Below the pieces are notes generated by a model, which was given only the letters and a program-made list of their open reading frames with translations, had not been told where the DNA came from and made no database searches. From a virus (taxonomy: Duplodnaviria > Caudoviricetes), in the IMG/VR virus record IMGVR_UViG_3300015201_000009, positions 1 to 27,289 of that record: a DNA stretch of 27,289 nucleotides. One strand, given 5' to 3'. Below, in pieces: positions 461-17,092 of the stretch. The stretch's first letter is position 1. Each line of letters begins with the position of its first letter. The translations under genes were made by a program, and so were the position numbers.

Positions 461-1054
461 TCATCTTCCTTCCTTGTTTAAAAATTCAATATCGTATGAT
501 AGGTTAAACTCTTCTTCGGAAACTACTCCAGGTCTTTTCTCCGCTGTTCGTGGCTCGTATGCATAGATGATATAAGCCAGGTGCCTATCTTTCGCGTAGG
601 CTTCTTCCTTTGAGGTTACAGGATACGGCGAGTCTTTCTTGGGTAACCATCCCCCTTCTTCAATGGCTTCCTTGTGGGTCACTCTAGGTACCGCAGATTG
701 CATTTCTACAGCCTTAACTTTATCAAGCCATTCCTGAAGCTTCTTTGCTCTCGCCTCTCCGGTAAGCGGAACCCATTCTTTCTCCTGCTCCTTCTGCTCC
801 GCTTCTTTCTTCTTCTGCTCGATCTCCCACCAATTAACTTTTGGTTTATCAGGGGGTATTTTATTAAGTTTATTGGTTAAGTGTGTTCTATGTTCCCTGA
901 TAGGTACGACTGCAAAGGCTTCTCTATCAGCAAGTCCTAAAGTGTAAACCTGTTCAGCTACCTTTTTGAAAGTTTCAGGTTTGTGATTTTTACTTGCAGC
1001 CTCATACCAGATCTCGTCTGAGGTAAGGGATTGATAGAAGGATTCAAAATTCAT
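461..1054 (-). CDS. hypothetical protein; N-terminus resembles the C-terminal domain of Bacteroidota phage replication proteins
   Basis: 197 aa ORF, ATGA overlap with upstream gene; L..DEIW.E ... H..N.L pattern recalled from such proteins (weak). Confidence 0.45.
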   Translation of the reverse strand: MNFESFYQSLTSDEIWYEAASKNHKPETFKKVAEQVYTLGLADREAFAVVPIREHRTHLTNKLNKIPPDKPKVNWWEIEQKKKEAEQKEQEKEWVPLTGEARAKKLQEWLDKVKAVEMQSAVPRVTHKEAIEEGGWLPKKDSPYPVTSKEEAYAKDRHLAYIIYAYEPRTAEKRPGVVSEEEFNLSYDIEFLNKEGR

Positions 1055-1493: not shown

Positions 1494-1675
1494 AGAGATG
1501 CATAGTCTAAACCTTCTTTAGTAACTTTCAAAGATTCAGTCAGGTAACCTTTAGATAAAAGGGTGGACAATGCGGTTTGTCTATCTTTCAACTTCATAGG
1601 GCCAAAATGAAAGAATCCAATCATATGAATCTGAGTAAGAATTCTTTTGAGAGTTTGTTCGCTTGTTGCTTTCAT
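1490..1675 (-). CDS. small hypothetical protein, possibly winged-helix-like
   Basis: Likely start MKATSEQ; L.SKGYL...VT.EG pattern. Confidence 0.55.
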   Translation of the reverse strand: MKATSEQTLKRILTQIHMIGFFHFGPMKLKDRQTALSTLLSKGYLTESLKVTKEGLDYASL

Positions 1676-1748
1676 ATCCCTTAGTATTATGATATAAAGA
1701 TACAACCGAGATACATCTAATCCTAGTACTTTCTAATATTTATTTAAA

Positions 1749-2267
1749 TTATTTTCCATGATGTATTTTATGGCATTTAAAACACAGTGGCACAACATCT
1801 TCAACGGTCTCATGATATAGGTTTTTGTAGGTTCTATGATGCCCTTGTAGCCTGTCCTCAGAACAGCAAAGAACACATTTACCACCCCAGTGGATTATAC
1901 ATTCTATTCTGATCTTCCTCCATTCAGGAGATTTAAGGTAATCCAAATACTTTTGCCTCCATTCATCAGTTATAATTTTAACCTTCTTTTCGGGTCTCTT
2001 TTTTGGTGTTGGTTCAGGTAAAATATCCTGTTCGTATAATTGGATTATGAATGCGTCAGTCCTAATTTCAATAGGCCTTTGTATATCAAACATTGTAAGG
2101 AATGTACTTATTCTCTTTTTATGTTTCATTCCGTGTAAGTTCACCCCCTCACGTTCCAAAGCATCAAATATTCTTCTTTTAGCAGCCTTAAGCTTAATAT
2201 GATAATTCATGGACTTATTGTGATGAGCCATAGTTTCTAGGTTTGTGTGGTCAATTCCTCCGATCAT
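1749..2267 (-). CDS. HNH endonuclease with N-terminal extension
   Basis: YLKSPEWRKIR...CVLC...GHHRTY...LCFKCHKIHH. Confidence 0.85.
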   Translation of the reverse strand: MIGGIDHTNLETMAHHNKSMNYHIKLKAAKRRIFDALEREGVNLHGMKHKKRISTFLTMFDIQRPIEIRTDAFIIQLYEQDILPEPTPKKRPEKKVKIITDEWRQKYLDYLKSPEWRKIRIECIIHWGGKCVLCCSEDRLQGHHRTYKNLYHETVEDVVPLCFKCHKIHHGK

Positions 2268-2299
2268 AGCAGTAAAAAGTTTAATGTTATAAAGTGATA

Positions 2300-2731
2300 G
2301 ATTTCTAGAGCGAGGTAAGGACAGAGTGAGCCCCCCTAACCCCCATTAAAGAAGTTAGGAGAGTAAAGTTTTCTATCGCTTCGGTTAAGTCTTCGCTTCG
2401 CCTTTGTTTTATTTCGGCCCCCTCACCATAGCGAAACTAGTCGCGGGCTAATGCATCCGAAAATGTTTTAATGTCTCGCCTACGTATTGCACGTAAGATC
2501 ACACCTGACAATGATTTTTATTTGTTTATGAGAGCCGCCGTATACCCCGTAGGACATGGACTAAACGCTCTGTCTCCCTTTAAGCAGAACCTAAGAGATG
2601 CCCTTGATCACGGGAAACGCTTTTTGAGGTAAGGTATAAAAAGCAAAAACCTGCAGTGAGGGTCCAGCTCAAAACAGGTTCTACTTGATTTCACACTTAA
2701 TACTGGACCTATCAGGTGTGAATTGATAGGC
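2300..2731 (-). ncRNA. candidate structured non-coding RNA or cis-regulatory leader
   Basis: No long ORF; multiple hairpins with G-U pairs on the minus strand, cUACGg loop, complementary loops, 10-bp long-range pairing. Confidence 0.6.
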
Positions 2732-2763
2732 CGAATATCACCAACTAAAACGACACAAACAAA
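2732..2763 (-). promoter_or_regulatory. possible Bacteroidota-type promoter for the non-coding region
   Basis: TTTG-N20-GATATTCG on the minus strand (degenerate match to TTTG...TAnnTTTG). Confidence 0.35.
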
Positions 2764-2804
2764 AGAAAAGTTTAAAAAAGTTAAATAGGAATCTTATCAG
2801 ACAT

Positions 2805-2826
2805 AAAAAAAGACCCTAAGGCCTTC
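2805..2826 (-). terminator. intrinsic terminator closing the TnpB guide
   Basis: AAGGCC-TTAG-GGTCTT followed by a T run on the minus strand. Confidence 0.75.
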
Positions 2827-2828
2827 TA

Positions 2829-3000
2829 GTTTCTGTTTCTCTCTCAGATTGGCATCCTCTTCGTCATAAAGACAAAGATTCCCTTAACGGCGTCTTATGC
2901 CCCAGACGGAAACTGAGTATGTTTTTAGCGGCGTTCACATCCCTTTGATGCTCGGCACCACAACTACACGTCCAGTTTCTTACTCCCAATTCGCGCACAC
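2829..3000 (-). ncRNA. TnpB omega-RNA (reRNA) scaffold plus ~20 nt guide; 5' boundary approximate
   Basis: IS200/IS605-type right end GGAAT-CTTTGTC-TTTAT-GACGAAG-AGGATGCCAA overlapping the tnpB stop; upstream hairpin CGTCT/AGACG; guide 2848-2829. Confidence 0.7.
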
Positions 3001-3913
3001 CTTTCGGGCCTGTTCGTTCTTTGCAGACTGAACACGTCACGGTTGAGAAACTTTCATTGACCTCTTTCACTTCGACGCCAAGCCTAATGGCTTTGTATGC
3101 AAGCATCGTTTTGAAGGATGACCAACCTGCATCACTGACAGATTTAGCCATCCGGGTTTTTATTAATTTTGATGATGAGACGTTACCAATCGCAATCAGA
3201 TCATATTCTTTGACCAGTTTCGTGGTTTGTTTATGGTTCCAGTCTCTTCTTTGATTCTTCATTTTGGCATGAATGGCAGTAACTAGTTTCTTTTTACCGG
3301 CCCTTTGTGCCATAGCTAGTTTCTGTTCATACTTACAGGTAAGATTGTCCCTACTTAGTTCATTGCCATTAGATAGGGTAGCTATCGTTTTTAAGCCTAA
3401 GTCAATACCCACTTCCTTGCCTGTTTGTATACGTACTCGGTCAGCATCAGCAATAACCATATTAACGAACCAATGACCTTTGGCATCCTGCGAAAAGGAA
3501 CCAGCCCTGATTTTGCCTTCTATGGGTCTGGACATCCAGAAACGGAATGCGCGCCCATTGTATATAATACAATCACCATTTAGCTTTACTCCAGCGCCTT
3601 TAAAGGGTATCCAGCCAAGAGACCGTTTTCGGCTTCTCCAATTCAATTTTGGTTTCTTGAATTGCTTGCTGCATTTCGCGTACTCTTCTCCAATAGCCTG
3701 AACGGTTTGGGAGTATAATCCTAAGTCTTTGGCACAGCCAGCCGTTTTCATGTTCAGATCAAACCCAGAATACGTTTTACGGAATTTACGCCAGCTATCA
3801 TAGTTCACATCGTTGCAATAGTTCCAAACGAAATTAACTGCGCCAGCCATCTTATTTAGATGTTTGGAGGTAGTTTCGTCTTTGATTCTATATCGTAACG
3901 TTGTCAATTCCAT
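2864..3913 (-). CDS. tnpB: TnpB RNA-guided endonuclease (IS200/IS605 family, IS1341-like, no tnpA)
   Basis: N-terminal YRI/HTH with VWN, RuvC-I GIDLG, Zn finger CSVC...CSC, RuvC-III HQRDVNAAKNI. Confidence 0.95.
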   Translation of the reverse strand: MELTTLRYRIKDETTSKHLNKMAGAVNFVWNYCNDVNYDSWRKFRKTYSGFDLNMKTAGCAKDLGLYSQTVQAIGEEYAKCSKQFKKPKLNWRSRKRSLGWIPFKGAGVKLNGDCIIYNGRAFRFWMSRPIEGKIRAGSFSQDAKGHWFVNMVIADADRVRIQTGKEVGIDLGLKTIATLSNGNELSRDNLTCKYEQKLAMAQRAGKKKLVTAIHAKMKNQRRDWNHKQTTKLVKEYDLIAIGNVSSSKLIKTRMAKSVSDAGWSSFKTMLAYKAIRLGVEVKEVNESFSTVTCSVCKERTGPKGVRELGVRNWTCSCGAEHQRDVNAAKNILSFRLGHKTPLRESLSL

Positions 3914-4497: not shown

Positions 4498-5009
4498 GAA
4501 TATGCTTTGTAGGTTTTTAATCTTCCTTTACATGCGTCCTGAATTGACTTAGCATTAAGGCCTGTTTCCCTAGCTGCATCACCTGTACTTTCGTAAGCAC
4601 CGCATAGCTCACCTAAAATATTAAACCTCTCTACTGGCTTAGAGCGCCAATGCCTAATACCGGTTCTTCCAATCATTGATTTAGGGATTAGACCCAGGTC
4701 GATACCATGCTTGATATTTTCAGAGCGTGTGCACCATTCTAGATTCTTCCAGTCGTTATTCAATTTTATCCCGTCGACATGATTTACCTCCGGTTTGTTT
4801 TCTAGGTTCTCTATAAACTCCATCGCAACTAGCCTGTGAACTAAGAATGATTTAGTTCCTCCTTTCGAAACGTTCAATTGCTCGTAACCATTCTTGACCA
4901 CAGTTTTCATTGCTTGACCGTGTTTGTTTAGGATAGCGCCATTACGGATTATCTTGTAACCCCACTCTGATATCAATTCGGTGTCTGCTATCTTTTCAGG
5001 GAGGGTCAT
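4482..5009 (-). CDS. HNH homing endonuclease with C-terminal NUMOD1-like domain
   Basis: VHRLVA..F...VNHVDG.K.NN...NLEWCT.SEN..H; Y.S..AARETG...I...C.G. Confidence 0.9.
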   Translation of the reverse strand: MTLPEKIADTELISEWGYKIIRNGAILNKHGQAMKTVVKNGYEQLNVSKGGTKSFLVHRLVAMEFIENLENKPEVNHVDGIKLNNDWKNLEWCTRSENIKHGIDLGLIPKSMIGRTGIRHWRSKPVERFNILGELCGAYESTGDAARETGLNAKSIQDACKGRLKTYKAYSWRYK

Positions 5010-5739: not shown

Positions 5740-5971
5740 TGTTAGTAGCTAATCAACTTTTCTTTATTATGAATTTAACAACCCTTTGAAGGCCTGAAAT
5801 CCCCTGTTCATCGAAGTCCATACCAAGTTGCTCACATAGGTCGTACAGCGTTACCCAGGCCCTTGCTTGATCTTTTAAGGCTGCCGGATCATCACTGATG
5901 GTCTTTGTTTTCATTATCTCATTTACATTCTCTACAGTAATTTCCATGTTATTTTGTGTTAGTAGCTAATC
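5740..5971. repeat. 15-bp direct repeat TGTTAGTAGCTAATC (5740-5754, 5957-5971)
   Basis: Exact duplicate; partial third copy TTAGTAGCTA at 5454-5463. Confidence 0.85.
5753..5947 (-). CDS. small hypothetical protein
   Basis: 64 aa ORF in operon. Confidence 0.65.
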   Translation of the reverse strand: MEITVENVNEIMKTKTISDDPAALKDQARAWVTLYDLCEQLGMDFDEQGISGLQRVVKFIIKKS

Positions 5972-6364
5972 TGCTGAAGCAGTTTCAGCTGCACTTTGTA
6001 ATGATCAATCTTTTCAACTAGTTCGTGACGCATGAATTTAGCCAGGCTTTTTGATTGCAATCGCAACTCTTCTAATAGATCAGGTCCGTAAACTTGATGC
6101 ATCATCCAAACGTATTTCTGACCATGTTCAGGATCGACGCAATTGCAATACTGGCAAACTGGATGGCAATTCCCTTTCATCGTAACGGGTAGCCATTTGA
6201 TCTCGATCTATGAAGTGCCCACACTGTGCCTCTGATATTCTCATTCGCTTTGAGCAAATGAAACAATAGCAATACCCATCATGGGAATATTTGTTGCGGA
6301 TATACTTACTGAATACGTCATCCAGTTCTTTCGTGAGCACCGCTAAAGACTTATCCGGTTTCAT
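5959..6364 (-). pseudogene. ninG: NinG/Rap-like recombination endonuclease split by a +1 frameshift
   Basis: LD.VFSKYIR...CFIC...CGHF......TRYDE in one frame and NCH..C..CN in the next; removing one G at 6172-6174 restores DERNCHP. Confidence 0.75.
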
Positions 6365-14045: not shown

Positions 14046-14381
14046 ATGTTCTGGAAGAAGTCTCAAAAAAAGCCGGGGTTAGACAAAGAGGCGTTAAAAA
14101 TAACCAAAGGAAATTCTGAATTGGTCCTTTTTACTCCAACCAATTACGAAGGAAATGTAACGTATGGCGAGTTCTATTCGGTCGACATTTGCCCGAAGTG
14201 TCATGCGGTTTTAGATGACAAGAAGGCCCGTTATTATTCAAGATGTTGCTATAAGTGTGGGCATACAAACTGCGACACACTCTTTGACACGGAGAAAGTA
14301 ACGGTTAGAGATGTGTATGTTAATGGGAAATTCACCGAGACGATAGTTCATGAAAAAGAAAATCGGATCGGGCAAAGATGA
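14046..14381 (+). CDS. zinc-binding hypothetical protein between terS and terL
   Basis: CPKC...CYKC; ATGA-coupled to terL. Confidence 0.65.
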   Translation: MFWKKSQKKPGLDKEALKITKGNSELVLFTPTNYEGNVTYGEFYSVDICPKCHAVLDDKKARYYSRCCYKCGHTNCDTLFDTEKVTVRDVYVNGKFTETIVHEKENRIGQR

Positions 14382-17092
14382 GTGCAGCTGAATCCTACGC
14401 CTCCTGGGTTCTGGACCCTGCCAACACTCACCGAACGGGGAGACTGATTAAGCTTGCAGCTCAACGGTTCTTCGATGATCTAAAGCGTGAAGACATTTAT
14501 TTCGACGAAGTGGAGGCGAACCGGATCTGTATTTTCGCTGAAAACTATTGCTGTCTATGGGAGGACAAGTGGCGCGGTAAGCCGGTAAAGTTGGAGCTCT
14601 GGCAGAAGTTTGCTTTGCAGAATATGTACGGCTGGTTTGTGAAATCTACCGGACTCCGAAGGTTTAAGAAAGGCTACATCCAGATCGCGAAGAAGAACGC
14701 GAAGGCACTTGACATTAACACACCAATTCCTACCCCGGATGGTTGGCGTAGAATGCTTGATATACAAGCCGGTGATTTTGTTTTTGGTGACGATGGAAAG
14801 GCAACACGAGTGAATTTTATATCGGAGTTAATGGAAAGAGATTCCTATGAGATTACTTTCCGTGGCGGGGATAAAATAATAGCATCAGGAGATCATCTAT
14901 GGAGGGCCAGAAATAATAAATGGAGATCCGAAAAAGGAGGCCGGCATTACTATTACAAAATTGTTGATACCAATTATATAGCAGAAAATTTTTTAGATAA
15001 AAAAGGTTTCCCGATTATTCATATTCAAAATGCTAAGGCAGTTGAATACCTTCATAAAAATCTTTTAATACCTCCTTACATCTTAGGCTGTTGGCTGGGC
15101 GACGGACACAGTAAATCGGCGAGGGTTACATTTAATGCGCTAGATTCGGAGCTTGTGACTAATATCCAGGCAGATGGATACTCTTTAACAAAGGGAGCAA
15201 AGGAAAAAAGTTCTAATGCTGTAACCTATAAATTAGGTGATTACAACGAATTACTATCCGGACTTAAGGCGTATAACCTTGTTAATAACAAACACATTCC
15301 GGAAGTTTATCTACAGTCCTCAATTGAACAAAGGTTCGAGTTATTGAAGGGGTTAATGGACACCGATGGGACAGCAACACCTCGCGGCCAGTGTATTTAT
15401 TGCACGATCAGAGAAGAGTTTGCTAAAGACGTTTTGGAACTTATCACAAGCCTTGGATTTAAAGCAACGCTTACGGATAAGGTTTCACGTTGTCAGACCG
15501 GTGCGATAGGTAAAGCTTATTATATTGGTTTCTTCCCTGACGTTCCGGTATTCAAGTTGAAACGAAAATTAGCCAGACAGAAAGAAAAAGTAAACCACAG
15601 ATCTCACCATAGAACGATAATAGATGTAAAGCCTGTAGGTAAAAGGTTAGTAAAATGCATTTCAGTAGATAACAGCTCACATCTATATCTAGCCGGGAAA
15701 CACTTTATACCAACCCACAACACGACTTTGGGCGGTGGTGTGATTGGAAACTTCCACCTGTTTGCAGACGAACGGATCAAGACGCCAAAGATATTCGTCG
15801 GGGCCAACAATGAGGATCAGGCTAAACTTTGCGTGAACATCACCGGGAAGGTTATCGAACAATCTCCAGCGCTGTATGAGTATGTGGAAGATGATTCTGT
15901 CAGACTGTTCCGGTACAAAGAGAACATTGTGAATATCGTTCACTCGGAGCGGGACGGGTTTATCAAAGCGTTATCGAAAGAAACAGGCGACCGTACTTCT
16001 AAAACTGCCGGGGGAAAGCATGGTATCAATCCGTCATTAGGGATCATTGACGAGTACGGGATGGCTCAGGATGATAATTTATTGAATACGATTGAGTCGG
16101 CTATGGCTGGACGCGAAGAGCCGTTTGTTTTGATCATCACTACTTCCGGGTTCTATTTACAGGGGCCGTGTCATGACAAGCTTCGAAAGATAGGTATCGC
16201 AGTCCTGGAAGGAACTATGACCGATGACAGTTACCTGGCTTTGATCTACGAGATCGACCCACCGACACCGGGAGAAATAACAGTCGATTGGTTGCTGGCG
16301 AATGAGAATGTTTGGGAACAAGCGAATCCGAATATTGATGTATCGGTGTTCAGAACTTTCTTGCGTGATCAATTGATAGCGGCGAAGAACGAAGGCGGCA
16401 GTAAAGAAGTGTCTGTGATGACGCTGAACTTTAACCGGTGGATGGAGTCGGCGGAGGTGTTTATACCGATCGACATTTGGAATACGAACAGCCACGAATC
16501 AAAGATAGAGGATGGAGAAGAGTGCTACGGCGGTCTATGGGTAGGAGCTTCAGGAGAGATCAGCGCGTTTGCTTTGATCTTTCCCGGTGAGATCGTAAAG
16601 ATAAAAATGTTATTTTGGATGGCGGAAGACAGTTTGAAAATGAACGACACCTTACGGCAGTACAAAGAATTTATAAAAGTAGATCCTGGTAACGTGGTGG
16701 ATAATGACATTGCAGTCGATTGGATTGTGGATATGGTCGGAAAGTACAACATGCATTCGTTCTGTTTCCCAAAACCCCAGGAGAACAACAGCATAATTCA
16801 GGATTTGATTAAGCTCGGATACGTAGGACAATCACTATCACAAGGGCTTGCAAGTCTGGCACAACCGACCGACCACTGGGAGAAGTTGATCAGATCAGGC
16901 AAAGCGGACCATTTCAACAACCCGGTTTTGAAGTGGATGAACAGTAACTGCATGGCGACCCGGAAGGAAGCTGGAACAAAGATCGACAACAATCCAAAAG
17001 TGTACGGTATATCAGCGTGTATCAATGCCGTTGCCCAGTGGGATTTGATCGACGCACAAGGAGGAAAAGAAATAGGAATTGTATTTATATGA
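14378..17092 (+). CDS. terL: terminase large subunit, intein-containing (565 aa after splicing)
   Basis: L..WQ.F, RRF, Walker A AKKNAK|TT, Walker B GIIDEY, IITTSG, W..ANP, H..NP.L.W. Confidence 0.95.
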   Translation: MSAAESYASWVLDPANTHRTGRLIKLAAQRFFDDLKREDIYFDEVEANRICIFAENYCCLWEDKWRGKPVKLELWQKFALQNMYGWFVKSTGLRRFKKGYIQIAKKNAKALDINTPIPTPDGWRRMLDIQAGDFVFGDDGKATRVNFISELMERDSYEITFRGGDKIIASGDHLWRARNNKWRSEKGGRHYYYKIVDTNYIAENFLDKKGFPIIHIQNAKAVEYLHKNLLIPPYILGCWLGDGHSKSARVTFNALDSELVTNIQADGYSLTKGAKEKSSNAVTYKLGDYNELLSGLKAYNLVNNKHIPEVYLQSSIEQRFELLKGLMDTDGTATPRGQCIYCTIREEFAKDVLELITSLGFKATLTDKVSRCQTGAIGKAYYIGFFPDVPVFKLKRKLARQKEKVNHRSHHRTIIDVKPVGKRLVKCISVDNSSHLYLAGKHFIPTHNTTLGGGVIGNFHLFADERIKTPKIFVGANNEDQAKLCVNITGKVIEQSPALYEYVEDDSVRLFRYKENIVNIVHSERDGFIKALSKETGDRTSKTAGGKHGINPSLGIIDEYGMAQDDNLLNTIESAMAGREEPFVLIITTSGFYLQGPCHDKLRKIGIAVLEGTMTDDSYLALIYEIDPPTPGEITVDWLLANENVWEQANPNIDVSVFRTFLRDQLIAAKNEGGSKEVSVMTLNFNRWMESAEVFIPIDIWNTNSHESKIEDGEECYGGLWVGASGEISAFALIFPGEIVKIKMLFWMAEDSLKMNDTLRQYKEFIKVDPGNVVDNDIAVDWIVDMVGKYNMHSFCFPKPQENNSIIQDLIKLGYVGQSLSQGLASLAQPTDHWEKLIRSGKADHFNNPVLKWMNSNCMATRKEAGTKIDNNPKVYGISACINAVAQWDLIDAQGGKEIGIVFI
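14705..15721 (+). mobile_element. class 3 intein with LAGLIDADG homing endonuclease (339 aa)
   Basis: Starts ALD..TPIPTPDGW, ends IPTHN/T; blocks LGCWLGDG and LKGLMDTDG; WCT triad. Confidence 0.92.

Follow-up and report, generated by a model that had tools for sequence, protein, structure and literature searches.

A conserved, folded non-coding element occupies the minus strand of positions 2312-2760 of the window; a promoter-like box near 2760 likely drives its transcription, and, with a probability that we put at about one half, it acts in cis as an RNA-driven origin of replication. The window, by which we mean the whole stretch of DNA analysed, is the entire 27,289-nt virus record (completeness about 42%), so that the absence of an initiator from it means little by itself. 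The element lies in a gap (2268-2863) between a TnpB gene and an HNH gene, both on the minus strand. Many uncultivated tailed phages have no recognisable initiator, primase or polymerase. A specific candidate for how such phages start replication is a short folded RNA that carries a G box behind its own promoter and that, in one clade, is mutually exclusive with the DNA-binding domain of the initiator. The features of the region are as follows.

2864-3913, minus strand: TnpB gene (PF07282 and PF01385), directly upstream of the gap and overlooked in the earlier note
2756-2763, minus strand: candidate -7 promoter box TTTGTTTG, Bacteroidota-type, one mismatch to TAnnTTTG
2636-2739, minus strand: leader, with a hairpin (2700-2738) followed by a terminator-like hairpin and U-tract (about 2636-2686)
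2511-2635, minus strand: variable middle region, with a cUACGg hairpin (2547-2552) and the second copy of GAGGTAAGG
2312-2510, minus strand: conserved structured core of about 200 nt, from 5' UGUCAGGUGU to 3' CCUUACCUC
2479-2497, minus strand: UGCAAUA hairpin of 6 bp with a G-C-closed 7-nt loop; two pairs with two-sided and two with one-sided change
2412-2462, minus strand: central multi-stem domain, with P1 (2462-2457/2417-2412), P2 (2448-2446/2427-2425) and P3 (2444-2441/2434-2431)
2331-2363, minus strand: G-tract hairpin of 14 bp with five G·U pairs, its 3' arm being the G5-UUA-G6 box (2344-2331)
2312-2330, minus strand: pyrimidine-rich 3' tail CUCACUCUGUCCUUACCUC, identical in all four sequences
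1749-2267, minus strand: free-standing HNH endonuclease gene, 172 aa (phrog_119, E about 5e-5; phrog_144, E about 8e-5)
461-1054, minus strand: conserved helical protein of 197 aa; in L002 and L016, as in the window, its gene lies downstream of the element

The core is conserved in three further phage contigs (L002, L016 and L038), to which it is 83-87% identical over about 200-230 nt, and it also occurs in contigs from seven other sequencing runs. No RNA run was listed as a carrier among 16 runs, which has no bearing on expression. The element (83% identity) is better conserved than nearby coding DNA, where patches of 461-1054 reach 70-79%. The full homologs, L002 (on the same contig as L006 and L067), L016 and L038, were found by pattern scans. 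The scan with GGCTAATGCATCCGAA returned one true locus and nine chance loci; of the 48 loci from the metagenome scan, two were new homologs, 45 were due to chance and one was the contig of the window itself; and the genome scan gave a single match, an unrelated hairpin. No new close homolog was recognised by eye among the 66 loci, mostly due to chance, of a gapped GTGCAA...G-box scan, and BLAST against the INPHARED phages gave no match for the gap or for the element of L072.

The contigs from other runs have loose ends that cluster at 2312 and 2509-2510, delimiting the core, and at 2739, delimiting the whole unit, in place of the limits of 2300 and 2640 proposed earlier. When contigs of four other soil runs were mapped on 1600-3100, the matches concentrated on the non-coding gap; a second mapping with four runs, one of them repeated, confirmed the ends at 2312 and 2509-2510, and in contigs of runs X4, X5 and X8 the match reaches 2739. 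The whole unit thus probably comprises leader, variable middle and core, about 440 nt in all (about 2312-2760). Past the core, the next start codon follows after about 15-45 nt, and the gene that it opens is different in each of the four homologs of the window family. Many contigs of other runs match, in addition, a short stretch past the HNH gene (1670-1755).

Covariation shows that the core folds. The structure, 39 pairs edited from an RNAalifold prediction on the four-sequence alignment and thus derived from the same four sequences, has two-sided changes in seven pairs; 97% of its cells are paired, against 36-53% in slid controls, and five structure measures were reached by 0-10 of 500 shuffles. 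With n=4, this covariation counts as support and not as a formal test. The earlier note singled out TACGT/ACGTA and GCGA/TCGC hairpins; both are present, and two-sided changes support them. In the central domain, UUUCGG/CCGAAA alternates with AGUCGG/CCGACU among homologs, and P3 occurs as GCGA/UCGC, GCUA/UAGC, GGUA/UACC and GGGA/UCCC. Paired variants in separate runs support the structure independently: 2461 A>C accompanies changes at 2412/2413 in the same runs, and equal depths link 2443 G>A to 2432 C>T and 2442 C>A to 2433 G>T, the phasing being read from depth among the rows listed (33 further rows lie outside this set). Pairing UCGG with the second CCGA instead was considered and dropped, as run X8 carries the 2380 variant without the 2461 variant.

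The folding energy of the core is unremarkable (z -2.1 to +0.5), and the region as a whole folds no better than chance: it has a z of -1.27, and 10 of 100 shuffles fold equally well. The G-tract hairpin is the sole part that folds better than shuffles, with a local z for 2320-2379 of -4.2 on the minus strand and -0.8 on the plus strand. A G·U-rich stem had been proposed at 2331-2363, and a hairpin is indeed there, its length being 14 rather than 13 bp, with five G·U pairs. The G arm is fixed apart from one broken pair in L016, and the opposite 5' arm varies mostly by C/U swaps, a pattern that fits G·U pairs in a minus-strand RNA. The two G runs (G5-TTA-G6, 2344-2331) lie on the strand of the flanking genes, which is presumably transcribed here. 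Next to this hairpin, UCUGUC (2325-2320) is predicted to pair with GAUAGA (2377-2372), with one-sided changes only and one break. Covariation and the G·U pattern thus uphold the view that this is a structured, strand-specific non-coding element, and the earlier impression that it belongs to no known Rfam family also held: the window gave no match at E<=1 (Rfam 15), and none was obtained on the element in six relatives, 20 G-box loci and seven further loci.

Two further landmarks named earlier do not belong to the conserved element. The cUACGg loop (2548-2551, minus strand) is present, yet it belongs to an insert missing from all three homologs and is altered in one X8 contig; the variable middle (2511-2635) is mostly missing in L016 and L038 and partly present in L002. 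The 9-nt direct repeat GAGGTAAGG does stand at 2312-2320 and 2626-2634, but it is at chance level: 48% of 1000 gap shuffles contain some exact 9-mer repeat, and the sequence is single-copy in each of the three homologs. A third copy lies at 1020-1028, inside the 461-1054 gene. A target-site duplication was rejected.

Upstream of the core, an exact TAnnTTTG box and a terminator-like hairpin were found in all three homologs (L002, L016 and L038); one X8 contig has TATGTTTG at about the position of the promoter box, on a loose contig end. TAnnTTTG is the Bacteroidota-type -7 consensus, and the promoter-like boxes are the one indication of the host of the window phage, putatively a member of the Bacteroidota. 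Positions 2712-2721 of the leader form a 10-nt exact complement of the 5' end of the core (2499-2508), and the corresponding complement in L002 is 9 nt long. Leader hairpins of the window, L002, L016, L038 and L065 are also complementary to DNA close to the promoter box, a little further upstream, and most phages differ in the sequence involved; the complement to a phage's own upstream DNA is 7-9 nt long in L002, L016, L038 and L065. This complementarity resembles that of c4/CI-like antisense systems. L065 (5669-6052) shares promoter and leader with L038, but the sequence after them is another one and closes with a G5-TA-G5 hairpin of its own. DnaA-box-like 9-mers (TGTGGATAA) lie upstream of the promoter in L038 (945-975) and, by eye, in L065 (5670-5690) and L069 (5808-5830); there are none in the window.

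Searching IMG/VR for TGGGGGTTAGGGGGG yielded 109 loci in 74 distinct contexts, 55 of them outside long ORFs; 69 G-box loci had enough flank, 52 being non-coding (L116 by judgement) and 17 in-ORF. A UGCAA-loop hairpin was found 97-182 nt upstream of the G box, on the G strand, in 34 of the 52 non-coding loci, compared with 1/52 in each of three controls and 0/17 for in-ORF boxes; the motif was picked after the loci had been viewed, and many of them are kin, with about ten distinct lineages visible. We define the class by two features: a pyrimidine-armed hairpin that contains a G5-TTA-G6 box and, 95-185 nt upstream of that box, a hairpin with a UGCAA loop. The window (loop hairpin 2497-2479, for which we use the label T-loop, assuming a T-loop-like geometry) and the L002-type elements fall within this definition, with a spacing of about 140 nt. 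One look-alike lineage (17 sequences) shows two-sided changes in 14 of 46 pairs and, opposite the G box, nothing but C/U changes. The window-family model, built on four sequences, matches other lineages at the G hairpin only (best L170, E 3e-5), the very feature by which they had been selected, and kinship of the window family with them is suggested by landmarks rather than by full homology. The class occurs in phage groups of very different base composition. Several look-alike loci have a Cro/YdaS-like gene and a TTGAC...TACGCT promoter-like pair before the element. The in-ORF G/C boxes include those of L107, L108, L115 and L142, in genes matching replication-initiation or primosomal PHROGs, where the box is reversed and C-rich on the coding strand.

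The gene context of the look-alikes lends real, if indirect, support to the earlier idea of an RNA-primed origin, the link to the window being made by landmarks. Ten G-box loci are followed by a protein that matches only positions about 207-320 of the 346-position O-like phrog_678, that is, its C-terminal third; in five of these ten, an HNH gene of the window's PHROGs stands between the element and the O-like protein. The distance from G box to O-like gene is 67-190 nt in many loci. In the complete genome MW202691.1, which was found by the O-like protein alone, both landmarks directly precede a 184-aa O-like gene. An origin-binding initiator was not recognised in three complete look-alike carriers: G006, which has a C-terminal phrog_678 match only; MW202691.1, whose annotation lists no polymerase, primase or helicase either; and G010, where the element comes shortly after a repressor-like gene and the 44 of 66 ORFs scanned include no initiator, primase or polymerase, the remaining 22 lying in a central, apparently structural region.

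The slot before the truncated gene was surveyed from the protein side in the best 80 of 537 IMG/VR loci, of which 68 with at least 1.3 kb upstream were kept and 12 dropped; the 68 are related phages of one large clade, and some of these contigs had also come up in the G-box scan. In none of the 68 does the ORF reach more than 100 codons beyond the O-like match on its N-terminal side. The slot holds a G-box element in 33 loci, a second non-coding element in 33 (30 called by pattern and three by eye) and a DUF1376 ORF in two, and never two of these together. The second element (L258, L316, L321, L327 and about 29 further loci) lies 330-460 nt upstream of the O-like gene, carries the motifs GGTCGGGGAAAC, GTCGGGAAGCG, AAAAGTAGCCGAC and GGCTCCGTCAGTCATC...TTCACCATCAGTCATC, has no G box and gave no Rfam match on four loci. 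The third kind of occupant is the following.

L291:2053-2517 (and L292): DUF1376 ORF, 154 aa, E 4e-23, preceded by the promoter and leader of the other loci and reaching into the start of the truncated O-like gene

L291 and L292 have an identical protein and represent one lineage; in both, promoter and leader run straight into the DUF1376 ORF without an RNA module, and we read them as a probable split initiator that occupies the place of the RNA.

Under the origin reading, transcription would pass through the terminator-like leader so that the 200-nt core is made. The core would fold, and the G5-UUA-G6 box would be freed from its own G·U-rich hairpin. It would then either hybridise to the C-rich template or engage the displaced strand in an RNA-DNA G-quadruplex, and in this way keep up a persistent R-loop. 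On the DNA opened in this way, a helicase could be loaded by a protein without an origin-binding domain of its own or by host restart proteins, and the RNA might double as primer. The RNA would thereby substitute for the DNA-binding half of a lambda-O-type initiator, and the window element would act like its look-alikes. That an RNA-opened origin makes the initiator's DNA-binding domain unnecessary is the most economical reading, and one that we consider evenly balanced between right and wrong. Several observations weigh against it: the window element is tied to the truncated-O clade by two landmarks only; the 461-1054 protein has no homology to O-like proteins; half of the truncated-O loci, those with the second element, lack a G box, which is thus not needed for the role of the slot; the exchange of protein for RNA was seen in one lineage (L291/L292); several landmark-bearing loci have no recognisable O-like gene downstream; the complete G001 has a 461-1054 homolog but no G-box element; the box has the opposite orientation inside initiator genes; the core is not unusually stable; and only four full sequences underlie the structure of the window family. 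A broader proposal, put forward tentatively and in our view doubtful, is that phage RNAs of a widespread class have taken over from the origin-binding domain of lambda-O-type initiators: RNA modules of at least two unrelated folds and the DUF1376 protein would be interchangeable cassettes in one slot, the RNA would mark and open the origin and recruit the half-protein as an RNA-protein initiator, and the window would hold the Bacteroidota-type version.

The core has a promoter-like box and a terminator-like hairpin before it and the next start codon after it, which is also what would be expected of a cis-regulatory leader of the downstream early operon, acting as a put-like antiterminator (an RNA fold that alters RNA polymerase), an attenuator or a translation switch, with no direct role in replication. 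The complementarity of the leader loops to upstream DNA of the same phage and, for the window and L002, to the 5' end of the core agrees with such a role, as does the variety of downstream genes. We think it possible though unlikely, as it leaves unexplained why the initiator is always truncated behind the RNA, as promoter and leader run into the DUF1376 ORF without an RNA module in L291/L292, and as the invariance of the G arm exceeds the needs of pairing. Alternatively, the RNA might be part of a ribonucleoprotein initiator, binding the truncated initiator (or the 461-1054 protein) through its T-loop and multi-stem domain and tethering it to the origin, and not mainly forming an R-loop. T-loops are motifs of tertiary contact, two unrelated-looking RNAs and one DNA-binding domain are interchangeable before the same protein, and the second RNA has no G box; however, several landmark-bearing phages have no recognisable O-like gene downstream (L090, L096, L138, L146, L242, L225 and L073) and near-identical proteins are preceded by very different RNAs, which makes this alternative improbable.

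The remaining explanations appear weaker. It is very unlikely that the element is a DNA-level signal, such as a single-strand origin or a primase or helicase loading site that folds when unwound, the RNA being incidental: two-sided changes are strand-symmetric and compatible with DNA hairpins, the same box occurs inside initiator genes, and DnaA-box-like 9-mers stand upstream in L038 and, by eye, in L065 and L069, but most changes in the G hairpin are one-sided C/U swaps that face an invariant G, and both phage groups have a promoter-like box before the element. The earlier suggestion of an RNA partner or guide for the adjacent HNH nuclease did not hold up and is highly improbable. An HNH gene of the same PHROGs does follow the G-box element in the window and in L072, L103, L113, L116, L129, L145 and L147; the next gene is, however, a NUMOD4/HNH_3 gene in L038 and encodes small, non-HNH-like proteins in L002 and L016, the HNH is likewise absent or replaced in many G-box loci, and no variable guide segment was seen. 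This pattern fits a homing endonuclease riding beside a conserved site. Several changes in L002 are synonymous in a frame of the type MSGVILRA...DxKT, with A-rich sequence (by eye) before its start; even so, a short peptide gene or decayed coding sequence is hardly credible, given that the homologs disagree in start codon and in the position of the stop, that indel lengths are not divisible by three, and that the hairpins stay paired through the same changes.

Several known systems resemble the element in part. Lambda/Rac-type replication modules have an O or YdaU gene with an internal origin; the look-alikes are found at the corresponding place on the map, behind repressor-like and Cro/YdaS-like genes, and full-length initiator genes contain the same G/C box. 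They differ in that their initiator lacks the N-terminal domain and has a folded non-coding element in its place, and in that the box is G-rich, not C-rich, on the coding strand. The origins of T4 ori(uvsY) and lactococcal phage c2 need a non-coding transcript in cis; they work with other sets of replication genes, and no sequence similarity was seen. HEARO/OMEGA-type systems place a structured RNA beside an HNH gene, whereas the phage element has no Rfam match, fixed nuclease partner or visible guide segment, and the 172-aa HNH is free-standing. A precedent for an RNA-opened origin is the ColE1 RNA II pre-primer (PMC5043065), with which the element is proposed to share a non-coding transcript, an upstream promoter, a persistent RNA-DNA hybrid that opens the DNA without an origin-binding initiator and, possibly, antisense control at the 5' end. 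The phage element has no sequence or Rfam similarity to RNA II or RNA I, forms a unit of about 440 nt with a 200-nt core in tailed phages, and has no identified RNA I-like antisense gene; ColE1 has no truncated initiator gene, whereas the look-alikes precede one. Mitochondrial CSB II is a precedent for a hybrid block at a G-tract (PMC3488243); in the phage element, a 14-bp G·U-rich hairpin within a larger covarying fold is predicted to enclose the G runs, and a quadruplex is hypothetical. On the origin reading the element would function in the manner of ColE1 RNA II, with a G block of the CSB II kind, while belonging to neither.

Literature searches, which covered titles and abstract openings, found no paper describing the element. 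The motifs had no match in four supplementary files of PMC10690425, a paper that may still list the element among candidate phage RNAs, and PMC3901673 contains the motif in a primer table only. The element is real, uncatalogued and structured, and is probably an RNA-driven origin of a form not described before. If the origin reading is true, RNA-opened origins would extend from ColE1, T4 and mitochondria to lambda-like modules, an RNA would stand in for a protein domain, and small portable replicons would come within reach.

The 461-1054 protein has 49 homologs, and 159 representatives; the replication role suggested for it earlier found no confirmation. The earlier note had asked whether it co-occurs with the element: a homolog lies further down in L002 and L016, and among ten IMG/VR loci only L067 has the core. 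L069 has the leader only, and L070 and the complete G001, which has a 461-1054 homolog and no G-box element, carry another non-coding stretch; a G tract at G001:40494 was rejected as the element, as it lies within a terminase-region ORF. This third non-coding family, from relatives of the window phage (L254:16945-17454, from G001, and L070:4762-5316), shares, by eye, the motifs GAAGCATGT, CAAGAGTA and ACTT(T)CGAGCCGG; each stretch is followed by an endonuclease-like gene (DUF559, HNH), and L070 also contains a tRNA (4818-4890). Locus scans with one protein at a time, HNH or 461-1054, returned no loci, and a search of 401 genomes from one Bacteroidota sample, run with no positive control, gave no match to the 461-1054 profile. 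A match to DUF7833 (E 0.06) appeared in only 2 of 45 members; in L336, DUF7833 is the C-terminal domain of a protein matching a replication-initiation PHROG, and the 461-1054 profile matched neither this initiator nor O-like proteins. Fold searches gave a best Z of 6.2, with none at Z>=8, no BFVD match at E<=0.001 and no usable Atlas match. The C-terminal part of 461-1054 is common to proteins with phrog_35728, to which no function is assigned.

Elsewhere in the window, the TnpB gene (2864-3913) has no adjoining TnpA and is followed by a hairpin and T-run at about 2804-2830; its omega-RNA and guide should lie near 2830-2950. A NinG/Rap-like gene at 5959-6364 is split over two overlapping ORFs (phrog_5034 positions 9-65 and 65-133), which we read as a frameshift or an assembly error. 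The large-terminase-like ORF at 14378-17092 (904 aa) appears, by eye, to contain an intein-like insert.
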